A model generated the notes under the pieces. That model did not search any database, had not been told where the DNA came from, and worked only from the letters and a program-made list of their open reading frames with translations. DNA of 64,000 nucleotides from assembly GCA_017380635.1 (NCBI GenBank), contig JAFODP010000008.1, positions 49,199 through 113,198 on the forward strand, given 5' to 3'. How positions within the stretch are numbered: position 1 is the stretch's first letter; the number at the start of each line of letters is the position of its first letter. A program made the translations under genes and the position numbers. This document shows positions 1,965-42,423 of this stretch, one piece after another. The stretch is from Bacteroidales bacterium (GTDB lineage: Bacteria > Bacteroidota > Bacteroidia > Bacteroidales > UBA1402).

Positions 1965-2822
1965 TTAGAATTTTAATTGTTTAACGTAGTTGGTAAATTT
2001 TTCCGCATTATTGAGCTCGGCTTCTTTTTCTCCGGCAGATACCACTTTGGTTTTGTAATGTTTGCAAGGCTTAGAGATAAGCATCACTGCATTCTTGGTA
2101 ACTTTCTTCTGTTCCAAAGTGCCGGGCTTATACACCATACCTCCACCAATGTTGATAGGATTTTTGCTCACATCGGCCGGATGACGACCCCAGGTAGCAA
2201 TATGCGCTTCGTCGGTGAAGAGTTCTTTACCATCGTGGAAATTGACACCGGTAACGAACTGAACCTTACCGCCTTTCTTGCTGAAAGCTTCCACGATAGC
2301 TTCGCGCTGGCCATCAAGCATGGTAACACGAATAAGGATATCCACTTTCTTGTTCTTGTAAGGAATGCCTTTGGCCAACATTTCTGCCACAGCACCATTC
2401 TTGATTTTCTTCACACTGGCCGTACGACCTTCGGTAGCCGTCAGTTTAATCACTTCCTTGCCATCCCAAAGATTGTAACCGCCCAAACCCACGGTAGAAC
2501 CTACTTTATATTCGTCGCAGCCATAACCTTGAGCCTGCATTTCGAGCGTGGGATACCAATGTGCCGTTGCCAATTCCAATTGAGGTTTCTGCTTAGAATA
2601 TACATCGATAGAACCACTGTGGTTGAAGTAGATACGCAAAGCCATATAATCGTTTTCGACCGCCGGACCATGATGTCCCACCTTACGATACAAATCGCCT
2701 TCCGGACTGAAAATTTCACTCACCTGAACACTGTCAGAACGCCAGAAAAGGCTGATATCGGTTTGCGCGTTCATCGAGAACGCCATGATGGCCAACAAAG
2801 AGCCTACAATCATCTTTCTCAT
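1965..2822 (-). CDS. Secreted hypothetical protein (family not recognised)
   Basis: Signal peptide MRKMIVGSLLAIMAFSMNA/QT. Tight spacing with folA (4 nt) and argH (4 nt). No motif I can assign. Confidence 0.5.
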   Translation of the reverse strand: MRKMIVGSLLAIMAFSMNAQTDISLFWRSDSVQVSEIFSPEGDLYRKVGHHGPAVENDYMALRIYFNHSGSIDVYSKQKPQLELATAHWYPTLEMQAQGYGCDEYKVGSTVGLGGYNLWDGKEVIKLTATEGRTASVKKIKNGAVAEMLAKGIPYKNKKVDILIRVTMLDGQREAIVEAFSKKGGKVQFVTGVNFHDGKELFTDEAHIATWGRHPADVSKNPINIGGGMVYKPGTLEQKKVTKNAVMLISKPCKHYKTKVVSAGEKEAELNNAEKFTNYVKQLKF

Positions 2823-2826
2823 ATCA

Positions 2827-4164
2827 TTATGCTTTTAAAAGTTCTTTAATTGCTTGATTTACTTTATCAAAACCAAAATCTTCGTACACTTCCTGCATAC
2901 GCTGACGTATTGCCTCGTTGCACAAATTGCCAATGCTACCTTCGTGTGTGTGATGCACTTGCTTGTCCGTACGGAATGCTCCGGCCTCGATTTCCAAGCC
3001 CACCTGACGATAAGCTTCGCGGAAAGGCACGCCGGCCAACACGCGCTTGTTCACTTCTTCAACACTGAAAAGATAGAGATATTTATCGTCGGCAAGAATA
3101 TTTTCCTTCACTTGCAATTTCGACATCATGGCAGCCGTCATGTTCAGACAATCGATCAATTCGTCGAAAGAAGGCAGGAAGACTTCCTTGATAATCTGCA
3201 AATCGCGGAAATAACCCGAAGGCAAATTCTGGATAATGCTGGAAATCTGCTGCGGAATAGCCTGAATCTTATTGCATTTGGCGCGCGTCAGTTCGAAAAC
3301 ATCGGGATTCTTTTTGTGCGGCATGATGCTAGATCCCGTGGTAAATTCGGCCGGCAAACGAATAAAATCGAAATTCTGCGAATTGAACATACAAGCATCG
3401 AAAGCCAATTTGGAAACAGTTCCCGCCATAGCCGCCAAAGCAAAAGCCGTCAGACGTTCCATCTTGCCACGGCCCATCTGCGCATACACCACGTTATAGT
3501 TAAGACCCTCGAAACCAAGCAAATCGGTCGTCATCTGGCGATTCAGCGGGAAAGACGAGCCATAACCGGCGGCCGAGCCCAAAGGATTACGATTGCAGAT
3601 TTTGTACACCGACTGCAGCAGCTGCATATCGTCCACCAAAGATTCCGCGTAAGCACCAAACCACAAGCCGAAAGACGATGGCATGGCAATCTGCAAATGC
3701 GTATAACCCGGCATCAATACCTCGCGATAACGCTCGCTTTGCTCGCTGAGCACCTGGAAAAGATGCATCGCCGCCTGCGCCACTTCTTCTATCTTGGCAC
3801 GCATAAACAAACGCAAATCCACCAACACCTGATCGTTGCGCGAACGACCGCTGTGAATCTTCTTGCCCATATCACCCAAAGCGCGGGTCAGTTGCAATTC
3901 CACCTGAGAATGAACATCTTCCACGCCTGCCTCGATACAAAAATCGCCCGCTTTGATCTGGGCATGAATCTTGCGCAATTCATCCAAAAGTACAGGCAAT
4001 TCTTCGCTCTCGATAAGACCGATACTTTCCAACATACGAATATGCGCCATCGAGCCAAGCACATCGTACTCAGCCAGATACATATCCATTTCCGTATCAC
4101 GACCCACTGTAAAGCGTTCGATATCTTTATCAACAACCGTATTTTTCTGCCAAAGTTTATTCAT
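2827..4164 (-). CDS. argH: Argininosuccinate lyase
   Basis: 445 aa. Fumarate-lyase superfamily blocks GYTHLQIAMPSSFGLW and GSSIMPHKKNPDVFE. The N-terminus KLW...RF is typical of ArgH. Confidence 0.92.
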   Translation of the reverse strand: MNKLWQKNTVVDKDIERFTVGRDTEMDMYLAEYDVLGSMAHIRMLESIGLIESEELPVLLDELRKIHAQIKAGDFCIEAGVEDVHSQVELQLTRALGDMGKKIHSGRSRNDQVLVDLRLFMRAKIEEVAQAAMHLFQVLSEQSERYREVLMPGYTHLQIAMPSSFGLWFGAYAESLVDDMQLLQSVYKICNRNPLGSAAGYGSSFPLNRQMTTDLLGFEGLNYNVVYAQMGRGKMERLTAFALAAMAGTVSKLAFDACMFNSQNFDFIRLPAEFTTGSSIMPHKKNPDVFELTRAKCNKIQAIPQQISSIIQNLPSGYFRDLQIIKEVFLPSFDELIDCLNMTAAMMSKLQVKENILADDKYLYLFSVEEVNKRVLAGVPFREAYRQVGLEIEAGAFRTDKQVHHTHEGSIGNLCNEAIRQRMQEVYEDFGFDKVNQAIKELLKA

Positions 4165-25914: not shown

Positions 25915-25975
25915 GCGTTTTTGTGGAAGGATTTGAACGCTTGCAACCACGTGAAAAAAATGCTAAAGACTCACG
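25915..25975 (+). promoter_or_regulatory. Structured metK 5' leader, candidate SAM-responsive riboswitch (SAM-II-like blocks)
   Basis: GCGUUUUU-GUGG (25915-25926) can pair with CCAC...AAAAAUGC (25947-25963). The enclosed and trailing sequence GGAUUUGAACGCUUGCAACC...AAAAAAAUGCUAAAG recalls the U-rich, GCUU and A-rich-GCUAAAG blocks of SAM-II as I remember them. GGAAGG (25925-25930) is complementary to CCUUCC (25986-25991). No covariance model was run. Confidence 0.35.
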
Positions 25976-26027
25976 CAAACTTTCCCCTTCCCTATAACTT
26001 TATGTTTTACCTGCCAAATGGCTATAA

Positions 26028-33196: not shown

Positions 33197-34832
33197 CGCG
33201 AATCACCATGCGTTCGCTTGCGCTTTCTTGATGCAGACGGTTGAAAGCGCTGACATGATATACCCACTCTCCGGCATGCGGATGTGAAGGCAAACTAAAA
33301 TACGGCTGACGAACAATGCCCACAATAGCTCGCGGATCTTGCAGATTTTCAGCCTCTCCCAAAGGGAAACGATAGATAACGAAATATTTGGCGCGTTTCA
33401 TTTCTTGACGCGAACGAAGCGTCTTCCATGCCAAATGCGTTCCCTTTTCAAAATCGTAATGCAAGTCCAAAGCGTAAACAGGCTCGGGAAGCACCTGATA
33501 ATCACGGTTGTCGGCGGGAACCAAAGCCGGATAAGCATGCCAGGTATTTTTCAGACTATCACAAACACCGCCATAATCGGCTTCCAACTCGTAAGCCGGA
33601 AAAAAGCAATTGCCCTGCACACCTGCCTGCTCACGCGCTTGTAACATCTTGGCACTCAGCTGATGAGGCTTCATCGTACGAACCACATCCTGACCAATAT
33701 ACATCGCAGCTCCAAAACTGTGATTGGCCCACCATTCAAGCAAAGTACTATAATCGGCAAGCGGATGACCAATTTCCCAATAAAGCTGTGGAATACAATA
33801 ATCTATCCATCCTTCACGCATCCAGGTGAGCGCATCGGCATAAAGATCGTCGTAATTGCTCAGGCCATTCGTGCGACTGCCATCCGGATCTTGTTTCAGA
33901 TTGCGATGAATACCGAAAGGACTGATACCAAAACGCACCCAAGGCTTCTCTTCGCGAATGACACGATGCAAATCGCGCACCAAAGTGTTCACATTGTTTC
34001 GTCGCCAATCGGCCTTCTGCGAAGAAGTAAATCCCTGTGACGCAGCATATTTGGCAAAACTTTTATCGTCGGGAAATTCCAAACCGGCCTGCGGATAAGG
34101 ATAAAAATAATCGTCCATGTGGATACCGTCGATATCGTAATTGCGGACAATCTCGCGCACCACTTTCAGAATATGCTGCTGCGACTCGGGCAAACCCGGA
34201 TCCAACCAAAGACTGCGTCCGTAATGCAACATCAAATGACGGTTCTTGCGCACGAAAGGCTCCTTATAATCAGCCTCTTTCACCGTCAACTTGACACGAT
34301 AAGGATTAATCCAGGCATGAATATCCATATTGCGACGATGACAAGCTTCGGTAAGATAAAAGAGCGGATCCCAGCCGGGGTTCTTGCCTTGCTTGCCCGT
34401 GATAAAGCAACTCCAAGGCTCGTAGGACGATTTATACCAGGCATCGCATTGCGGACGCACCTGAAACAACACCACATTGATACCGGCACTTTGCAGACTA
34501 TCCAGCAGATTCTCAAAATAAATCATCATCTGGAAGTCGGTCATCTGCGCATACTTAGTTTGGTTGATGGTACTGATCCACGCACCTCGAAATTCCGCTT
34601 TCGGCGGAAGCACAGACTCCGTTGAAACCGAAGCAGACAAAGACAAAGCAGAAGCAGACACCGAAGCCGAAGCTGAAACCGAAACCGAAACCGCCGAAGA
34701 CGAAGCAGAAGCAGAAGCTGACGCAGACGAAGCAGAAGCTGACGCCGCCGAAGACGAGGAAGCCGAGGCCGGTAATAAAGTCATCAGCGAAAGCAAAATC
34801 GTAAGTATCAGACTTTTACCATTCATAAACAT
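33189..34832 (-). CDS. Glycoside hydrolase-like family 10 (GHL10/DUF187, YngK-type) secreted protein
   Basis: FRGAWISTINQ..., TIM-barrel-like blocks IDGIHMDDYFYP and GISPFGI. Start taken at ATG 34832 (MFMNGKSLILTILLSLMTLLPASA). The track's extension to 34898 would overlap rnz. Confidence 0.7.
   Translation of the reverse strand: MFMNGKSLILTILLSLMTLLPASASSSSAASASASSASASASASSSAVSVSVSASASVSASALSLSASVSTESVLPPKAEFRGAWISTINQTKYAQMTDFQMMIYFENLLDSLQSAGINVVLFQVRPQCDAWYKSSYEPWSCFITGKQGKNPGWDPLFYLTEACHRRNMDIHAWINPYRVKLTVKEADYKEPFVRKNRHLMLHYGRSLWLDPGLPESQQHILKVVREIVRNYDIDGIHMDDYFYPYPQAGLEFPDDKSFAKYAASQGFTSSQKADWRRNNVNTLVRDLHRVIREEKPWVRFGISPFGIHRNLKQDPDGSRTNGLSNYDDLYADALTWMREGWIDYCIPQLYWEIGHPLADYSTLLEWWANHSFGAAMYIGQDVVRTMKPHQLSAKMLQAREQAGVQGNCFFPAYELEADYGGVCDSLKNTWHAYPALVPADNRDYQVLPEPVYALDLHYDFEKGTHLAWKTLRSRQEMKRAKYFVIYRFPLGEAENLQDPRAIVGIVRQPYFSLPSHPHAGEWVYHVSAFNRLHQESASERMVIRVK
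34610..34765 (-). repeat. Ser/Ala(/Val) low-complexity linker encoded by trinucleotide-type repeats
   Basis: Encodes SSSSAASASASSASASASASSSAVSVSVSASASVSASALSLSASVSTESV directly after the signal peptide. The plus strand shows reiterated gaagc(a/t)ga units. Confidence 0.85.
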
Positions 34833-37154: not shown

Positions 37155-38555
37155 TTATGCGAATACTCCCATTTTGAGCAAACCAACTTCGCGTTCTGTC
37201 AAATGTCTCCATTTACCGCGAGGAAGATTCTTTTTGGTCAAACCGGCAAAGTACACGCGATCGAGTTTATACACTTTGTAACCGAATTTTTCGAAAATAC
37301 GACGTACTACACGATTTTGGCCTGAGTGAATTTCCAAACCAATCACATTGGGCTTTTCGTTCACGTAGCTAATTTCGTCGATAGCAATCATTTCGCCTTC
37401 CAAATCAACACCTTTGGCAATTTCGTCCATCACTTCCTGAGGCAGATCTTTGTCGAGCGTAGCCTGGTAGATTTTGCGCTTTTCGTATTTGGGATGAGCC
37501 AATTTAGAAGCCAAGTCGCCATCGTTGGTCAGCAAGAGCACACCAGTGGTATTGCGGTCGAGACGACCCACAGGATAAATACGTTCGTAGCAAGCATTCT
37601 TTACCAGATCCATCACGGTAAGACGTTCTTGGGGATCTTCGGAAGTAGTCACACAATCCTTGGGCTTGTTCAAAAGCACATACACCTTACGTTCGATGCG
37701 TACGGGCTGATCGTGGAACATCACCTCGTCGGTAGGCATTACCTTAACACCCAATTCGGTAGCGATTTCGCCATTCACTTTTACCACACCAGCCTGGATA
37801 TATTCATCGGCTTCACGACGAGAACAGATACCTGCGTTAGACAAGAATTTGTTCAAGCGGATAGGCGTTGTGGGATCCAAGTTGGGCGCATATTTAGGTG
37901 CTTTGAAATCGTTTTCGGCCAACCATTCGGGGTTTTCTCTCTTACCACCGATTCTGGGGCGACGAGGACGATCGAAATTATTCTTGTCGAAAGAACGACG
38001 TTCGCCGTTGAAAGAGCGTTCACCATTGAAAGAACGATCTCTGTTGAAGGTACGTTCCTTACCGATAGCACGTTCGTTGTTGTTATACGATTTGCGTTCG
38101 CCACCATTGTACGAGCGACGTTCGCCAAAATTGCGTTCGCCGTTGAAATTGCGTTCGCCACCTTCGTTATTGAAACTGCGACGAGGACGATCGTTGTTGA
38201 AACTTCTGCGTTCGCCAAAATTGCGTTCCGAATTGAAAGAACGTTCACCGCCATTGTACGAGCGACGTTCGCCGAAATTGCGTTCGCCACCTTCGTTATT
38301 GAAACTGCGACGAGGACGATCGTTGTTGAAGCTTCTGCGTTCGCCAAAATTTCGTTCTGAATTGAAAGAACGTTCACCGCCATTGTACGAGCGACGTTCA
38401 CCATAACTGCGTTCGCCACCTTCGCGGAAATTACGACGCGGACGATCAAAATTTCTTTCTCTTCCGTAACTGCTACGGAAATCATTACCTTCACGGCCGG
38501 CATTGTAGGCACCTTCCTCAGGCTTTCCCTGCCATTTTTCGTTTCCAGTTGTCAT
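37155..38555 (-). CDS. rluB: Pseudouridine synthase (RluB/RsuA family) with ~215-aa N-terminal Arg/Gly/Glu/Asn/Ser/Phe-rich repeat extension
   Basis: S4 domain IRLNKFLSNAGICSRREADEYIQAGVVKVNG and catalytic block VGRLDRNTTGVLLLTNDG. The N-terminus is built of GERRSYNGGERSFNSERNFGERRSFNNDRPRRSFNNEGGERNF units. Confidence 0.88.
   Translation of the reverse strand: MTTGNEKWQGKPEEGAYNAGREGNDFRSSYGRERNFDRPRRNFREGGERSYGERRSYNGGERSFNSERNFGERRSFNNDRPRRSFNNEGGERNFGERRSYNGGERSFNSERNFGERRSFNNDRPRRSFNNEGGERNFNGERNFGERRSYNGGERKSYNNNERAIGKERTFNRDRSFNGERSFNGERRSFDKNNFDRPRRPRIGGKRENPEWLAENDFKAPKYAPNLDPTTPIRLNKFLSNAGICSRREADEYIQAGVVKVNGEIATELGVKVMPTDEVMFHDQPVRIERKVYVLLNKPKDCVTTSEDPQERLTVMDLVKNACYERIYPVGRLDRNTTGVLLLTNDGDLASKLAHPKYEKRKIYQATLDKDLPQEVMDEIAKGVDLEGEMIAIDEISYVNEKPNVIGLEIHSGQNRVVRRIFEKFGYKVYKLDRVYFAGLTKKNLPRGKWRHLTEREVGLLKMGVFA
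38090..38409 (-). repeat. 129-bp tandem duplication (~2.5 copies) within the rluB 5' region
   Basis: 38152-38280 and 38281-38409 are near-identical, with a few substitutions over the first ~115 nt. A partial copy precedes them at 38090-38151. The period is 129 nt, i.e. 43 codons. Confidence 0.9.
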
Positions 38556-38585: not shown

Positions 38586-39932
38586 TTACATACCGGTATA
38601 AGTATCCGGCTTAATATTGCGTAATTCGGCCTTCACGGCTTCAGATACGTTCAAAGTTTCGATGAAAGCAGCGATTGACTGCTCGGTGATAGCTTCGTTG
38701 GTGCGGGTAAGCGCCTTCAAAGTTTCGTAAGGATTGGGATAAGCTTCGCGACGGAGAATGGTCTGGATACCTTCCGCCACCACTGCCCAGTGATTTTCCA
38801 AGTCGTTCTGCAAAGCTTTTTCGTTGAGCAAGAGCTTGTTCAAACCTTTCAAACTGCTGGTGAAAGCAATCAACGAATGAGCGAAAGGCATACCGATGGT
38901 ACGAAGTACGGTAGAGTCGGTAAGGTCGCGCTGCAAACGAGATACAGGCAATTTAGAAGCCAGATAATCGAGCAATGCGTTGGCTACGCCGATATTACCT
39001 TCCGAGTTTTCAAAATCGATGGGATTTACCTTATGAGGCATGGCCGACGAACCCACTTCGCCCGCTTTGATTTTCTGTTTGAAATATTCCATAGAAATAT
39101 ACATCCAGAAGTCGCGGTTCATATCCTTCACGATAGTGTTGATGCGCTTCATGCCGTCGAAGATAGCGGCCAGATTGTCGTAGTTTGAAATCTGTGTGGT
39201 GTACATTTCGCGCTTCAAGCCCAATTTTTCAGACAAGAACTTAGCACCAAATTCGGGCCAATTTTCGTTGGGATAAGCCACATGATGTGCGTTGAAATTA
39301 CCGGTGGCACCACCAAACTTAGCAGAGAAAGGCAATTGTTTCAGTAAAGCCAACTGTTCGTTCAAACGATAAACGAAGACCTTAATTTCCTTGCCCAAAC
39401 GTGTGGGAGAAGCCGGCTGACCATGCGTCTTTGCCAACATTGCCACATTCGACCAATCGTTGGCATATTTATCCAAACAGTCGATAAGTTCTTGCAAAGC
39501 AGGATAATACACATCTTCCAAAGCTTCCTTGATAGAAAGAGGCACCGAAGTATTGTTGATATCCTGAGAAGTGAGACCAAAGTGAATGAATTCCTTGTAT
39601 TCAGCCAAGCCCAAACGATCGAAAGCTTCCTTGATGAAATATTCCACCGCCTTCACATCGTGATTGGTAGTAGCTTCGATGGTTTTCACGCGTTGCGCAT
39701 CGTCCAAGCTGAAATGACGATAAATATCGCGCAAAGATTCCAATACATCTGCGGGAACCGTTTTTAACTGAGGAAGAGGCATTTCGCACAATGCGATAAA
39801 ATATTCCACCTCTACGCGAACACGATAACGGATAAGGGCGTATTCCGAAAAATAATGGCCAAAGGCTTCGGTTTTACTGCGATATCTTCCATCCACAGGA
39901 GTAATGGCAGTCAAAGAATTCAAATTCATCAT
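38586..39932 (-). CDS. purB: Adenylosuccinate lyase
   Basis: LTAITPVDGRY and the fumarate-lyase signature GSSAMPHKVNPIDFEN. 448 aa. Confidence 0.95.
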   Translation of the reverse strand: MMNLNSLTAITPVDGRYRSKTEAFGHYFSEYALIRYRVRVEVEYFIALCEMPLPQLKTVPADVLESLRDIYRHFSLDDAQRVKTIEATTNHDVKAVEYFIKEAFDRLGLAEYKEFIHFGLTSQDINNTSVPLSIKEALEDVYYPALQELIDCLDKYANDWSNVAMLAKTHGQPASPTRLGKEIKVFVYRLNEQLALLKQLPFSAKFGGATGNFNAHHVAYPNENWPEFGAKFLSEKLGLKREMYTTQISNYDNLAAIFDGMKRINTIVKDMNRDFWMYISMEYFKQKIKAGEVGSSAMPHKVNPIDFENSEGNIGVANALLDYLASKLPVSRLQRDLTDSTVLRTIGMPFAHSLIAFTSSLKGLNKLLLNEKALQNDLENHWAVVAEGIQTILRREAYPNPYETLKALTRTNEAITEQSIAAFIETLNVSEAVKAELRNIKPDTYTGM

Positions 39933-39970
39933 AATAAGCTTATTAATATACCTTGTATAAATAGGGGGTG

Positions 39971-40001
39971 CAAAATTAGTGCAAACCGAGCGGAGAACAA
40001 A
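39971..40001 (-). promoter_or_regulatory. Bacteroidota-type promoter for purB (TTTG-N19-TAATTTTG on minus strand)
   Basis: Plus-strand caaaatta at 39971-39978 and caaa at 39998-40001, with 19-nt spacing, about 40 nt upstream of the purB ATG. Confidence 0.6.
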
Positions 40002-40020
40002 ATAAATTGTATGATATTTT

Positions 40021-40320
40021 CCAGATTCGAGCGAAGATAAAGCGATAGCTTGCTATCGAACTTTATCGAGGCTCAGATGAGACGATAGCTCGCTATCGGA
40101 TTTTATTGAAGCCGATATAAAGTGATAGCTTGCTATCAAACTTTATTGAAGCCGGTATAAAGTGATAGCTTGCTATCAAACTTTATAGAGGCTTTGATAA
40201 AGTCGGGAAGCTTGCTTCCCGCTTTATTGAGCAAAAATAAAATTGAAATACTGCTTCCGGCTTTATCGAAGCGAGAAATAAAACGGATAGTCAGCCTCAT
40301 ACTTTATCGAAGCGAGAAGA
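40021..40320 (+). repeat. Tandem array A: ~40-bp unit x7 with internal hairpin (GATAG-CTTG-CTATC type) and conserved CTTTAT(C/T)GA(A/G)GC block
   Basis: The CTTTAT motif recurs at 40061, 40101, 40141, 40181, 40222, 40261 and 40302. Palindromes: 40043-40058 cgatagcttgctatcg, 40083-40098 cgatagctcgctatcg, 40123-40138 and 40163-40178 tgatagcttgctatca, 40204-40221 cgggaagcttgcttcccg. The last two units are degenerate. Confidence 0.85.
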
Positions 40321-40324
40321 TGGA

Positions 40325-40354
40325 GAAAAACAAAAACGATGGTTTTTGTTTTTC
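40325..40354. other. Perfect 13-bp A/T-rich inverted repeat (GAAAAACAAAAAC-gatg-GTTTTTGTTTTTC), terminator-like on either strand
   Basis: Read directly from the sequence. It lies exactly between repeat arrays A and B. Confidence 0.7.
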
Positions 40355-40370
40355 CGAGGTGCAGCCTAAT

Positions 40371-40560
40371 TCGCGAGTCCCGCAGGGGCGAGAAAATTAG
40401 TGTAAAGCTCGAAAAAAACGCAGTGAGCGAAAAGAGGTTTGCATCGCGAGCCCCGCAGGGGCGAGAAAATTAGTGCAAAGCTCAAAAAGAACGAAGTGAG
40501 CGAAAAGAGGTTTGCATCGCGAGCCCGCAAGGGCGAGAAAATTAGTACAAAGCCCGAAAA
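40371..40560 (+). repeat. Tandem array B: 73-bp unit x3 (third truncated/diverged) with GC hairpin and a 14-nt copy of the purB promoter core
   Basis: Units start at 40371, 40444 and 40517 (tcgcgag...). Units 1 and 2 differ at about 5-6 of 73 positions. Hairpins are GCCCC-gca-GGGGC (unit 2), GUCCC-gca-GGGGC with a U.G pair (unit 1) and GCCC-gcaa-GGGC (unit 3). Each unit carries aaaattagtgcaaa or a one-mismatch variant, identical to 39972-39985. Confidence 0.85.
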
Positions 40561-40644
40561 CACCCCCATCACTGACGAAAAACACAGTGCCAAAGCCAAA
40601 AAAACGCCCAAAACAACATTTTTTCAAAAAAAATCATCAAATAA

Positions 40645-40675
40645 TTTGCAGATATAAAAATAAGCCGTATCTTTG
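40645..40675 (+). promoter_or_regulatory. Bacteroidota-type promoter for tRNA-Val (TTTG-N19-TATCTTTG)
   Basis: TTTG at 40645-40648 and TATCTTTG at 40668-40675, 22 nt upstream of the tRNA 5' end. Confidence 0.65.
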
Positions 40676-40697
40676 CACCGCTTTTCGAAAGAAACAC

Positions 40698-40772
40698 GGG
40701 CGCTTAGCTCAGCTGGTTCAGAGCATCTGCCTTACAAGCAGAGGGTCGGCGGTTCGAATCCGTCAGCGCCCA
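40698..40772 (+). tRNA. tRNA-Val (anticodon UAC)
   Basis: Manual cloverleaf: acceptor GGGCGCU/AGCGCCC, D-arm GCUC...GAGC, anticodon arm UCUGC-CUUACAA-GCAGA, T-arm GGCGG-UUCGAAU-CCGUC, discriminator A. 75 nt, no encoded CCA. Confidence 0.95.
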
Positions 40773-40778
40773 CAACCC

Positions 40779-40820
40779 AAAGCAGTTACAACGATGTTGT
40801 AGCTGCTTTTTCTTTTTATC
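40779..40820 (+). terminator. Rho-independent terminator after tRNA-Val
   Basis: 14-bp stem AAAGCAGTTACAAC-gat-GTTGTAGCTGCTTT (one G.U pair), followed by TTCTTTTTAT. Confidence 0.8.
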
Positions 40821-41013
40821 CTGAAAACCAACGCCAAAACCTCCAAGAATCTGAATTTATCATCTAAAAATCCATCCACACCATTAATACAAATTGGTAC
40901 ACTTTAACATTTCTGAACAATTTTACACCTTTTTAGTTAAAATTATCCCTACATTTGCCACCGAAGAAATTACAATTTAACTAAATTGGCTGATTCTGTT
41001 ATTGAAAGAGAAG

Positions 41014-41589
41014 ATGGAGAAAGCTACACTTTATTACGAGAAAATCAAAAAGGCCGTCGAAAATACCATCGGCCGAAGCATGCATACTACCAAAGATTTC
41101 GACTATCTGGCTATTTGTATACGAGAACGCACCAACTGCAGCATCAGCGCCATGACGCTGAAACGTTTTTGGGGATATTTAGGAAAAAAGAATATGCGTC
41201 AACCGCGTCTGGATACACTCAACATCTTGGCGCAGACCTTAGGCTACACCGATTGGTATAGCTATTGCAGTAGCGATTCACATCACACCAAATCGCAAAG
41301 CGACTTTATACTCAACAACTATCTGAGCAGTTCTTCCCTGGAAGCCGGCGCAGAACTCCGCATCATGTGGCATCCCGATCGCTGCCTGCATGTACGTTAC
41401 GAAGGGAACAACAACTTCACCATCATCGAAAGCATCAACAGTAAGCTTAGCGCGAACGACACCTTCACTTGCAGCTTGATTCTGGAAAACGAACCGCTCT
41501 ATCTCAGCAACCTGATTCACGAAGGCGGAGAGCCTTGTCATTATGTATGCGGCAGAATTGATGGAGTTAAATATCTCATTATCAAATAA
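41014..41589 (+). CDS. Hypothetical protein with putative N-terminal HTH-like domain
   Basis: The track ORF starts at a TTG (41002); the first ATG is 41014. The N-terminal block FDYLAICIRERTNCSISAMTLKRFWGYLG...LDTLNILAQTLGYTDWYSY looks HTH-like. The C-terminal ~100 aa are unassigned. A TACATTTG box lies at 40949-40956. Confidence 0.5.
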   Translation: MEKATLYYEKIKKAVENTIGRSMHTTKDFDYLAICIRERTNCSISAMTLKRFWGYLGKKNMRQPRLDTLNILAQTLGYTDWYSYCSSDSHHTKSQSDFILNNYLSSSSLEAGAELRIMWHPDRCLHVRYEGNNNFTIIESINSKLSANDTFTCSLILENEPLYLSNLIHEGGEPCHYVCGRIDGVKYLIIK

Positions 41590-41613
41590 AATGAGGGGAG
41601 GGGGGATTTTAGC

Positions 41614-42423
41614 ATGGCTACATCCGAATTTCTTAAGGAAACGGAGCCTTTCGAGCAAATCGAGAGTCTTCCCTGCGGAGGCAGCACTTCGCTCTGCTAT
41701 CGCGTGCGCAAGGACGGGAAAGACTACTTCATGAAAAAACTCCGCCCAGAGTTCAGGGATAATCAACGCTATCGCATGCTTTTCCACAAAGAACTCGAAA
41801 TCGGAAAAAACCTTCGCAACAAGTATTTTGCCAACTATCTCTCTTTACACGAGAACAAAGATGATATCTATTTAATTATGGATTTTATCAACGGACAATG
41901 CCTGGAAGAAACACTCAAGGTTAATCCTGGCTATTTTACCCTAGCCCACAACTACGAAAAATTTTTCATTCAGCTACTGAAGGGGCTTCGCATATTGCAC
42001 AGCAAAAACATCGCCTATCTCGACCTGAAGCCGGAAAACATTCTCCTGACGCAAGTCAACAACGACGTAAAAATCATCGATTTAGGATTCTGTTTGGACG
42101 ACACTTACGGTCAAACTGCCGGATACAACAAAGATTTCGCCGCACCCGAACTATTCAACAACAACGGCAAAGATATTGATGCTCGCAGCGACATCTATTC
42201 TTTTGGAAAGTTGATGCTTCATATCAACAAAATCTGTGTCATTAAGCACATTTCATTATTCCGAAAGAAAATTCTGAATAAATGCACACAAGAAAATCCG
42301 GAAGACAGATTCTCCAGCGTTGATGAGATTTTGCGCTACATCAATCGCAGAAAACAAATTTTAGCATTTACCGTTTTCTCGATGATTATCAGCATAGCAG
42401 GATTCTTCTTCGGATTCTATTGA
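41614..42423 (+). CDS. Hanks-type Ser/Thr protein kinase with single C-terminal transmembrane anchor
   Basis: Gly loop LPCGGSTSLCYRV, Lys in DYFMKKL, catalytic loop IAYLDLKPENILL, IIDLGFC (DFG-like) and FAAPELF (APE). C-terminal TM segment ILAFTVFSMIISIAGFFFGFY. Confidence 0.8.
   Translation: MATSEFLKETEPFEQIESLPCGGSTSLCYRVRKDGKDYFMKKLRPEFRDNQRYRMLFHKELEIGKNLRNKYFANYLSLHENKDDIYLIMDFINGQCLEETLKVNPGYFTLAHNYEKFFIQLLKGLRILHSKNIAYLDLKPENILLTQVNNDVKIIDLGFCLDDTYGQTAGYNKDFAAPELFNNNGKDIDARSDIYSFGKLMLHINKICVIKHISLFRKKILNKCTQENPEDRFSSVDEILRYINRRKQILAFTVFSMIISIAGFFFGFY

Follow-up and report, generated by a model that had tools for sequence, protein, structure and literature searches.

Is the tandem array upstream of a tRNA-Val gene in an uncultured Bacteroidales bacterium a regulatory device, an RNA, or a piece of DNA that has multiplied in place? 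The question was raised by a 64,000-nt stretch of contig JAFODP010000008.1 of a Bacteroidales bacterium (UBA1402), positions 49,199-113,198, hereafter called the window, whose numbering is used throughout. The nearest named relatives of its PurB are only about 77% identical. The array occupies 40371-40560 with a 73-bp unit, within the 765-nt spacer between purB and tRNA-Val, where it is flanked by two divergent promoters of the Bacteroidota type. Based on its structure and its distribution among relatives, the array is best explained as a locus-specific, young and strain-variable minisatellite, a variable number tandem repeat (VNTR) that would have arisen by neutral or nearly neutral tandem duplication, and we give this reading a probability of about 0.6. 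Most likely, the array has no dedicated function. Three readings had been offered from the letters of the window alone, namely auxiliary or decoy promoters directed towards purB, a structured RNA transcribed towards tRNA-Val, and the remnant of a local duplication. The last was the best supported of the three, given the paralogy of the units with the purB promoter, their absence in relatives, their confinement to a single locus and their range of one to five copies.

A tandem array with strain-variable copy number

Tandem Repeats Finder reported the array at 40371-40560 with a period of 73, 2.6 copies, 91% matches and a score of 317, and together with a repeat search it confirmed the three tandem units starting at 40371, 40444 and 40517. 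In the repeat search, units 1 and 2 were 93% identical, with 5 differences where the sequence-only reading had estimated about 5-6. Unit 1 (40371-40443) contained a hairpin with a T.G pair at 40377-40389, unit 2 (40444-40516) a hairpin at 40450-40462, and the truncated unit 3 (40517-40560), whose 3' half was replaced by unique sequence, a hairpin at 40523-40534. The covariance model of the unit scored them at 97.3, 101.2 and 27.4 bits, respectively. A 37-nt core was present three times, spaced 73 and 72 nt, and the 23-mer core gave three matches against none in shuffles. The 14-mer AAAATTAGTGCAAA was found exactly at 39972-39985, in the purB promoter, and at 40466-40479, in unit 2, and with one mismatch at 40393-40406 (unit 1) and 40538-40551 (unit 3). 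At up to one mismatch these were the four occurrences in the 64-kb window, compared with 0.10 in shuffles. The 14-mer common to all units and to the -7 region of purB, as noted before, was borne out, and it overlaps the -7 box of a perfect promoter. Head-to-tail repetition of a unit between 10 and 100 bp, beyond chance, places the array among minisatellites.

The open reading frames (ORFs) across the array yielded low-complexity peptides that differed from unit to unit, and one frame continued through the tRNA, in agreement with the sequence-only reading. A protein-coding repeat was rejected on the grounds that the periods of the array and of a neighbouring one, 73 and 40, are not multiples of 3 and that the peptides are junk.

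Copy number was determined in a comparison set of more than 30 related contigs, in which units were counted by parsing and by covariance-model search. Contigs L001-L010 encode exactly the PurB of the window and L118 was obtained from a metagenome scan; the spacer of these contigs measured from 379 to 765 nt. One unit was found in L003 and L009, two in L006, three in the window, L001, L004 and L010, four in L005, L007 and L008 as well as in L002 (three 62-nt variant units and one standard unit), and five in L118. The comparison with related strains that had been suggested from the sequence therefore gave a variable copy number, from 1 to 5 units among alleles with identical PurB protein, which is the polymorphism expected of a VNTR, and the units were also shuffled among strains. 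The purB DNA of these alleles differed at 15-41 positions per 1347 nt, and copy number already varied between alleles at a purB DNA distance of only ~1.5%. Identical purB alleles from independent assemblies carried identical arrays (the window, L001, L004 and L010; L005, L007 and L008; L112-L115), and since these were recovered from different samples and by different assemblers, the differences in copy number are reproducible and are not assembly noise. The exception was the pair L003 and L009, which share the same purB DNA and had 7 versus 1 units of the neighbouring 40-bp array, a discrepancy due either to a deletion of very recent date or to a collapse during assembly.

L002 (~2350-3000) was found to be recombinant. 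In purB it resembles the window (97.5% nt); the purB-proximal part of its spacer, including a promoter with TATCTTTG and the three variant units of 62 nt, corresponds to that of the L129 lineage, which in purB is 91% identical at the nucleotide level; and its last unit and tRNA side are again window-like.

The lineages at 98% PurB identity (88-91% DNA) showed the same order of elements, that is, one or more palindromes, an A/T hairpin, the segment CCGAGGYGCAGCCTA and one or more units, with one unit in L112-L115 and at least two in L129. In the sister species (PurB 91%, L106-L111), about 180 nt separate purB from tRNA-Val, with the same two promoters and without the repeat, and the relatives at 85% and 82% PurB identity were also without it. 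Compared to the sister species, the whole block of ~270-650 nt is an insertion. Its absence from these relatives suggested that the repeat block is a recent gain of one narrow clade.

The unit was then sought elsewhere. A degenerate 18-mer gave 95 single matches in 185,579 species genomes (596 Gb), compared with about 140 expected by chance according to our estimate, and none of them lay near a purB/tRNA-Val locus. A 19-mer detected seven loci in the metagenomes of the Joint Genome Institute (JGI); six were chance matches in unrelated genes, and the seventh was L118, which is the same purB/tRNA-Val locus and the only motif-bearing contig in that collection. In a viral collection, all matches to the unit pattern fell inside one phage ORF, and the pattern of the 40-bp unit had 0 matches. 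The covariance model of the unit, applied to the 64-kb window and the loci of the relatives, recovered only units of the array, the next best hits having E values of 0.13-0.38. Occurrence at many loci, which would mark a dispersed repeat, was not found in the genome, metagenome and viral scans or in the 64-kb window, a coverage that does not include the complete genome of this organism. The sequence-only reading had also proposed a search of Rfam, which returned no family for the array: Rfam 15 gave only the tRNA in 39000-42000 at E <= 10, and only two tRNAs and one SAM-II riboswitch in the whole window at the gathering score.

Relationship of the units to the purB promoter

Promoters of the primary sigma factor of Bacteroidota (sigma-ABfr) carry TTTG at -33 and TAnnTTTG at -7 (PMC7366714). 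The region 39900-40720 was scanned with this consensus and a spacer of 17-21 nt, mismatches being allowed, and only two perfect sites were obtained, one for purB on the minus strand and one for tRNA-Val on the plus strand. The purB core promoter (39971-40001, minus strand) consists of TTTG at 40001-39998, a 19-nt spacer and TAATTTTG at 39978-39971, and the tRNA-Val promoter (40645-40675, plus strand) of TTTG at 40645-40648, a 19-nt spacer and TATCTTTG at 40668-40675.

Aligned on the minus strand, the purB promoter reads TTTG-TTCTCCGCTCGGTTTGCAC-TAATTTTG-CACCCCC and the unit reads TTCG-TTCTTTTTGAGCTTTGCAC-TAATTTTC-TCGCCCC. The local alignment of unit and promoter scored 29-32, while shuffles scored 13-15 +/- 2.5; therefore, the unit includes a paralogous copy of the core promoter of purB that extends over both the -7 and the -33 box. 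In the repeat search, the 23-nt core of the purB promoter (39963-39985) was the source paralogue of the core of the unit.

The units of all strains had TTCG or TGCG in place of TTTG at the -33 box, and TAATTTTC or TATCTTTC in place of TAnnTTTG at the -7 box. Both defining G residues were replaced in 21 of 21 distinct units, and the resulting arrangement (TTCG or TGCG, N19, TAATTTTC or TATCTTTC) departs from the sigma-ABfr consensus. Because both consensus G residues are lost, the units are unlikely to fire and would be dead or very weak as standard promoters.

The similarity between promoter and units was also lineage-specific. AAAGATAG occurred in both the promoter and the units of L129 and L002, and AAAATTAG in both the promoter and the units of the window and the other lineages. 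Promoter-unit scores were 29-32 within a lineage and 17-22 across lineages. The positions that co-vary are the two unconstrained 'nn' bases of TAnnTTTG, so that selection for sigma-factor binding does not account for the match and gene conversion over about 400 nt is a simpler explanation than shared selection. We infer that such conversion keeps the core of the units similar to the real promoter.

Hairpin covariation, mechanism and rival explanations

The hairpin at the head of each unit took the forms that had been described from the sequence, G-TCCC-GCA-GGGG-C in unit 1, G-CCCC-GCA-GGGG-C (GCCCC-GCA-GGGGC) in unit 2 and G-CCC-GCAA-GGG-C (GCCC-GCAA-GGGC) in unit 3. A C deletion in unit 3 had been regarded as matched by a G-to-A change. 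Both changes were present, but they proved to be two separable steps, each occurring alone in another strain (CCCCGCAAGGG in unit 4 of L005 and CCCGCAGGGG in unit 3 of L118). In the alignment of 15 distinct segments, controls slid along the sequence were paired in 23-48%, and none of 500 shuffles reached the observed pairing; therefore, the palindromy of the hairpin is not due to chance. The stems fell into two main types, CCCC/GGGG and GCAC/GTGC, with the derivative GTAC/GTAC. Orthologous first units with near-identical flanks had different stems, TCCC/GGGG in the window versus GCAC/GTGC in L006, and a stem swapped within near-identical flanks argues for short conversion from a neighbouring unit and not for independent compensatory evolution. 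In L112 and L129 the hairpin was weak (GCGAAGC or CGC-GGA-GCG, 2-3 bp, -1.7 to -2.4 kcal/mol). The small number of stem types, the swapping of stems and the weak hairpins of distant lineages all weaken covariation as evidence of function.

Template switching during replication has been documented as a source of perfect stems and of multi-base 'compensatory' changes that need no selection (PMC8794818; PMC7202029), and it fits the hairpin data. These results suggested a mechanism in which copy number changes through replication slippage or unequal recombination, gene conversion holds the similarity to the core promoter, and the palindrome at the head of the unit is created or repaired by intrastrand template switching and by short conversion tracts between neighbouring units. 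In that case, the array would at most lengthen the spacer between the two promoters and add DNA capable of forming cruciforms.

Several observations weigh against a neutral minisatellite. The mini-hairpin was paired in 91.8% of the cells of the alignment and showed double changes at 3 of 5 pairs, a level reached by 0 of 500 shuffles. A second stem, TGCAAAGCTC...GAGGTTTGCA, was 95% paired, and its four one-sided changes all produced G.U pairs on the plus strand, as would also be expected of a plus-strand RNA under constraint or of a single-stranded DNA hairpin. The opposite case was seen at least once, as C.A in unit 4 of L005, and the independent events are few. The basal architecture, comprising a long hairpin, the A/T hairpin, the segment CCGAGGTGCAGCCTA and at least one unit, was kept in three lineages whose purB DNA has diverged by 9-12%, a retention that could be due to function and not to a young age. 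Finally, every copy number was taken from short-read metagenome assemblies, and several contigs end inside the region.

The last point bears on the idea that the array, or its differences in copy number, might be produced by mis-assembly of short reads. All data are of this kind, and L003 and L009 with their identical purB DNA may include one collapsed 40-bp array; however, for each of three alleles, different samples and assemblers independently gave one and the same array, and the units differ in sequence and are hence resolvable at k = 141, which makes an artefact scarcely credible. It is also very improbable that the block is the remnant of a mobile or dispersed family inserted by the tRNA gene, such as a miniature inverted-repeat transposable element (MITE), a relative of the repetitive extragenic palindromes and bacterial interspersed mosaic elements (REP/BIME), or the remnant of a phage attachment site. 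Palindromic modules beside a tRNA gene are typical of such elements, and the whole ~270-650-nt block is indeed inserted relative to the sister species, but no second copy was found in the genome, metagenome and viral scans, the window or the covariance-model search, no transposase or integrase gene is adjacent, and the block is situated between two promoters on the 5' side of the tRNA and not at its 3' end. More weight was given to auxiliary promoters. The units could serve as weak auxiliary promoters, or as decoy sites for RNA polymerase or a purB regulator, their number tuning purB. Their core is truly paralogous to the -7/-33 region of purB, with its orientation and its 19-nt spacing, it co-varies with the real promoter between lineages, and the copy number varies by strain. 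The homology and orientation claimed for promoters towards purB therefore stand, but standard activity is unlikely, both defining G residues being replaced in every unit of every strain. In addition, the co-varying 'nn' positions are better explained by gene conversion than by shared binding, the sister species does without the units, and the 14-mer is absent from the rest of the 64-kb window and gives no sign of a regulon operator. Auxiliary or decoy promoters are unlikely.

A modular structured RNA, for example one resembling a protein sponge, with transcription running towards tRNA-Val (plus strand) or starting at the promoters of the units (minus strand), was judged doubtful. For such an RNA speak the hairpin pairing that is kept through changes on both sides, the one-sided changes of the second stem, the apex AGCTTGCT conserved above variable stems in the 40-bp units, and loops belonging to classes known for their stability (GNA triloops and GCAA, with CUUG in the 40-bp units). 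The number of modules is also variable in modular RNAs such as CsrB. In 7 of 8 alleles the plus strand folded about 5% better than the minus strand, a difference too small to be used, among alleles that are not independent. On the other hand, there is no perfect plus-strand promoter between purB and the tRNA promoter, and the minus strand has only decayed ones; no Rfam match was obtained even at E = 10; the region is absent from the sister species and is not conserved outside the narrow clade; and the unit hairpin is reduced to 2-3 bp in L112 and L129. RNAalifold on 13 units backed the mini-hairpin only and did not recover the second stem. G.U counts in local folds over the whole region revealed no excess on either strand, and palindromes, as DNA, fold equally well on both strands. 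Taken together, the missing upstream promoter, the lack of an Rfam family, the narrow clade and the absence of a G.U bias left the proposal of a structured RNA running towards tRNA-Val unsupported. A broader and improbable version of function is that the whole ~650-nt block of CUUG palindromes, A/T hairpin and promoter-derived units with their GNA-loop hairpins is a fast-evolving functional module. It might be a sponge RNA for an RNA-binding protein, or a cis array that binds polymerase or a regulator and exchanges sequence with the purB promoter through gene conversion, in which case unit number and sequence would set the output of purB or tRNA-Val by strain. The neutral VNTR was preferred over all of these.

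Other candidates were tried and rejected. A clustered regularly interspaced short palindromic repeat (CRISPR) array was discarded on the basis of inter-hairpin segments that are 93% identical between units, with no cas genes nearby. No DnaA box was found at <=1 mismatch in 39933-40697, which led to the rejection of a replication origin or iterons, and the cumulative GC skew declines without a turn near 40 kb. An invertible promoter (inverton) was rejected because the units are not flanked by inverted repeats at long range; the local A/T hairpin was the sole inverted repeat detected. An array of intrinsic terminators was also rejected: the terminator scan flagged no unit hairpin, and the hairpins are followed by GAGAAAATT on the plus strand and CTCGCGATG on the minus strand, with no T run.

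Surroundings of the array and comparison with known systems

The spacer contains two further repeat elements. The array of ~40-bp units at 40035-40320 was detected by Tandem Repeats Finder, the repeat search and the strain alignment, with 3.8 clean copies to 40186 and a degenerate remainder. The units form long imperfect palindromes, e.g. ATAAAGCGATAGC-TT-GCTATCGAACTTTAT, with a CUUG-type loop at the conserved apex. The stems varied by unit and strain (GATAGC, GGGAAGC, GACAGC, GAGAAGC), and the copy number ranged from 1 (L009, L118, L002) to about 7 (L003). Between the two arrays lies a perfect 13-bp A/T-rich inverted repeat at 40325-40354, GAAAAACAAAAAC-GATG-GTTTTTGTTTTTC, which was found by the repeat search and gave a DNA fold z of -5.75. 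Both arms of this A/T hairpin were changed in a compensatory manner in L129 and L002 (AAAAACAAAGC/GCTTTGTTTTT), and the hairpin was degenerate in L112. In L123-L131, which encode the PurB variants P0001 and P0002, many short-read contigs stop 56-296 nt upstream of purB, where the arrays start.

The locus is bordered by purB (38586-39932, minus strand), which encodes an adenylosuccinate lyase of 448 aa according to its Pfam domains Lyase_1 and ASL_C and the database names of its homologues, and by tRNA-Val with the anticodon TAC (40698-40773, plus strand), identified by ARAGORN and Rfam. A terminator-like hairpin was found by the terminator scan 3' of the tRNA (40779-40809, plus strand). The neighbouring genes, besides purB, are an RluB-like gene, asnS, an unknown 191-aa gene and a kinase. 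Directly 3' of tRNA-Val (window 40774-41000), synteny is lost between the window and L106 of the sister species (locus ~2500-2740); the window continues with the 191-aa unknown gene and the Ser/Thr kinase, and the sister species with a ResB/cytochrome c assembly gene.

The RluB-like gene downstream of purB (37155-38555, minus strand; S4 and PseudoU_synth_2 domains) contains an in-frame tandem repeat of 129 bp at 38145-38424, with 2.2 copies and 95% matches. Its product measured 448, 461, 466 or 473 aa among strains with identical PurB, so that this gene holds a second length-polymorphic repeat, 2 kb from the 73-bp array. At 34630-34757, overlapping repeats of 18, 21 and 27 bp, rich in GAAGC and GACGAAG, presumably correspond to an acidic low-complexity coding stretch. 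The SAM-II riboswitch aptamer of the window, a long-loop variant (RF01726), lies at 25917-25976 on the plus strand and scored 59.4 bits against a gathering score of 44 in Rfam.

If the array is indeed a neutral VNTR, it would indicate that a segment of a bacterial promoter can be duplicated and expanded into a tandem array. It would also show that textbook 'compensatory' covariation can arise without RNA function, which calls for caution in the covariation-based discovery of RNAs within repeats. Arrays of this kind break metagenome assemblies, and in practice the locus lends itself well to telling strains of this uncultured Bacteroidales lineage apart. Greater importance would attach to it only if the units proved to be transcribed or to bind polymerase or a regulator.

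Several known systems share single features with the array. Like CRISPR, it has a partly palindromic repeat at regular spacing, but the 'spacers' have the same sequence in every unit. The sponge RNAs CsrB and RsmZ consist of tandem hairpin modules whose number varies between relatives. Unlike them, the array has no promoter or terminator that would define a transcript, its loops are GCA, GAA, AAA or GCAA and not GGA, and it is absent in the sister species. Bacteroidota are not known to possess a CsrA partner. REP/BIME and MITE likewise form clusters of extragenic palindromes with stable loops, but they are dispersed in tens to hundreds of copies with conserved stems, whereas here a single locus has variable stems and conserved flanks. 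The core of the unit can be aligned with the sigma-ABfr promoter of purB along both boxes (-7 and -33) and the 19-nt spacer between them, in the same orientation; however, the units lose both invariant G residues (TTCG; TAATTTTC), and the purB and tRNA-Val promoters match perfectly. The unit hairpins resemble those formed at quasipalindromes by template switching (PMC8794818; PMC7202029), with short perfect stems in otherwise unconstrained DNA, arms that change together and single-step intermediates in other strains, and the same mechanism would be suggested here by the pattern only. The closest known kind is that of the bacterial intergenic VNTRs such as the mycobacterial interspersed repetitive units (MIRUs), which are intergenic VNTR loci (PMC3635867). 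Both consist of head-to-tail intergenic units of tens of bp (here 73 and 40), both differ in copy number between close strains and are stable within a clone, and for neither is there an established function per locus. MIRUs occupy many loci per genome, whereas the 73-bp unit belongs to a single locus, is derived from the adjacent promoter and carries a palindrome in each copy.

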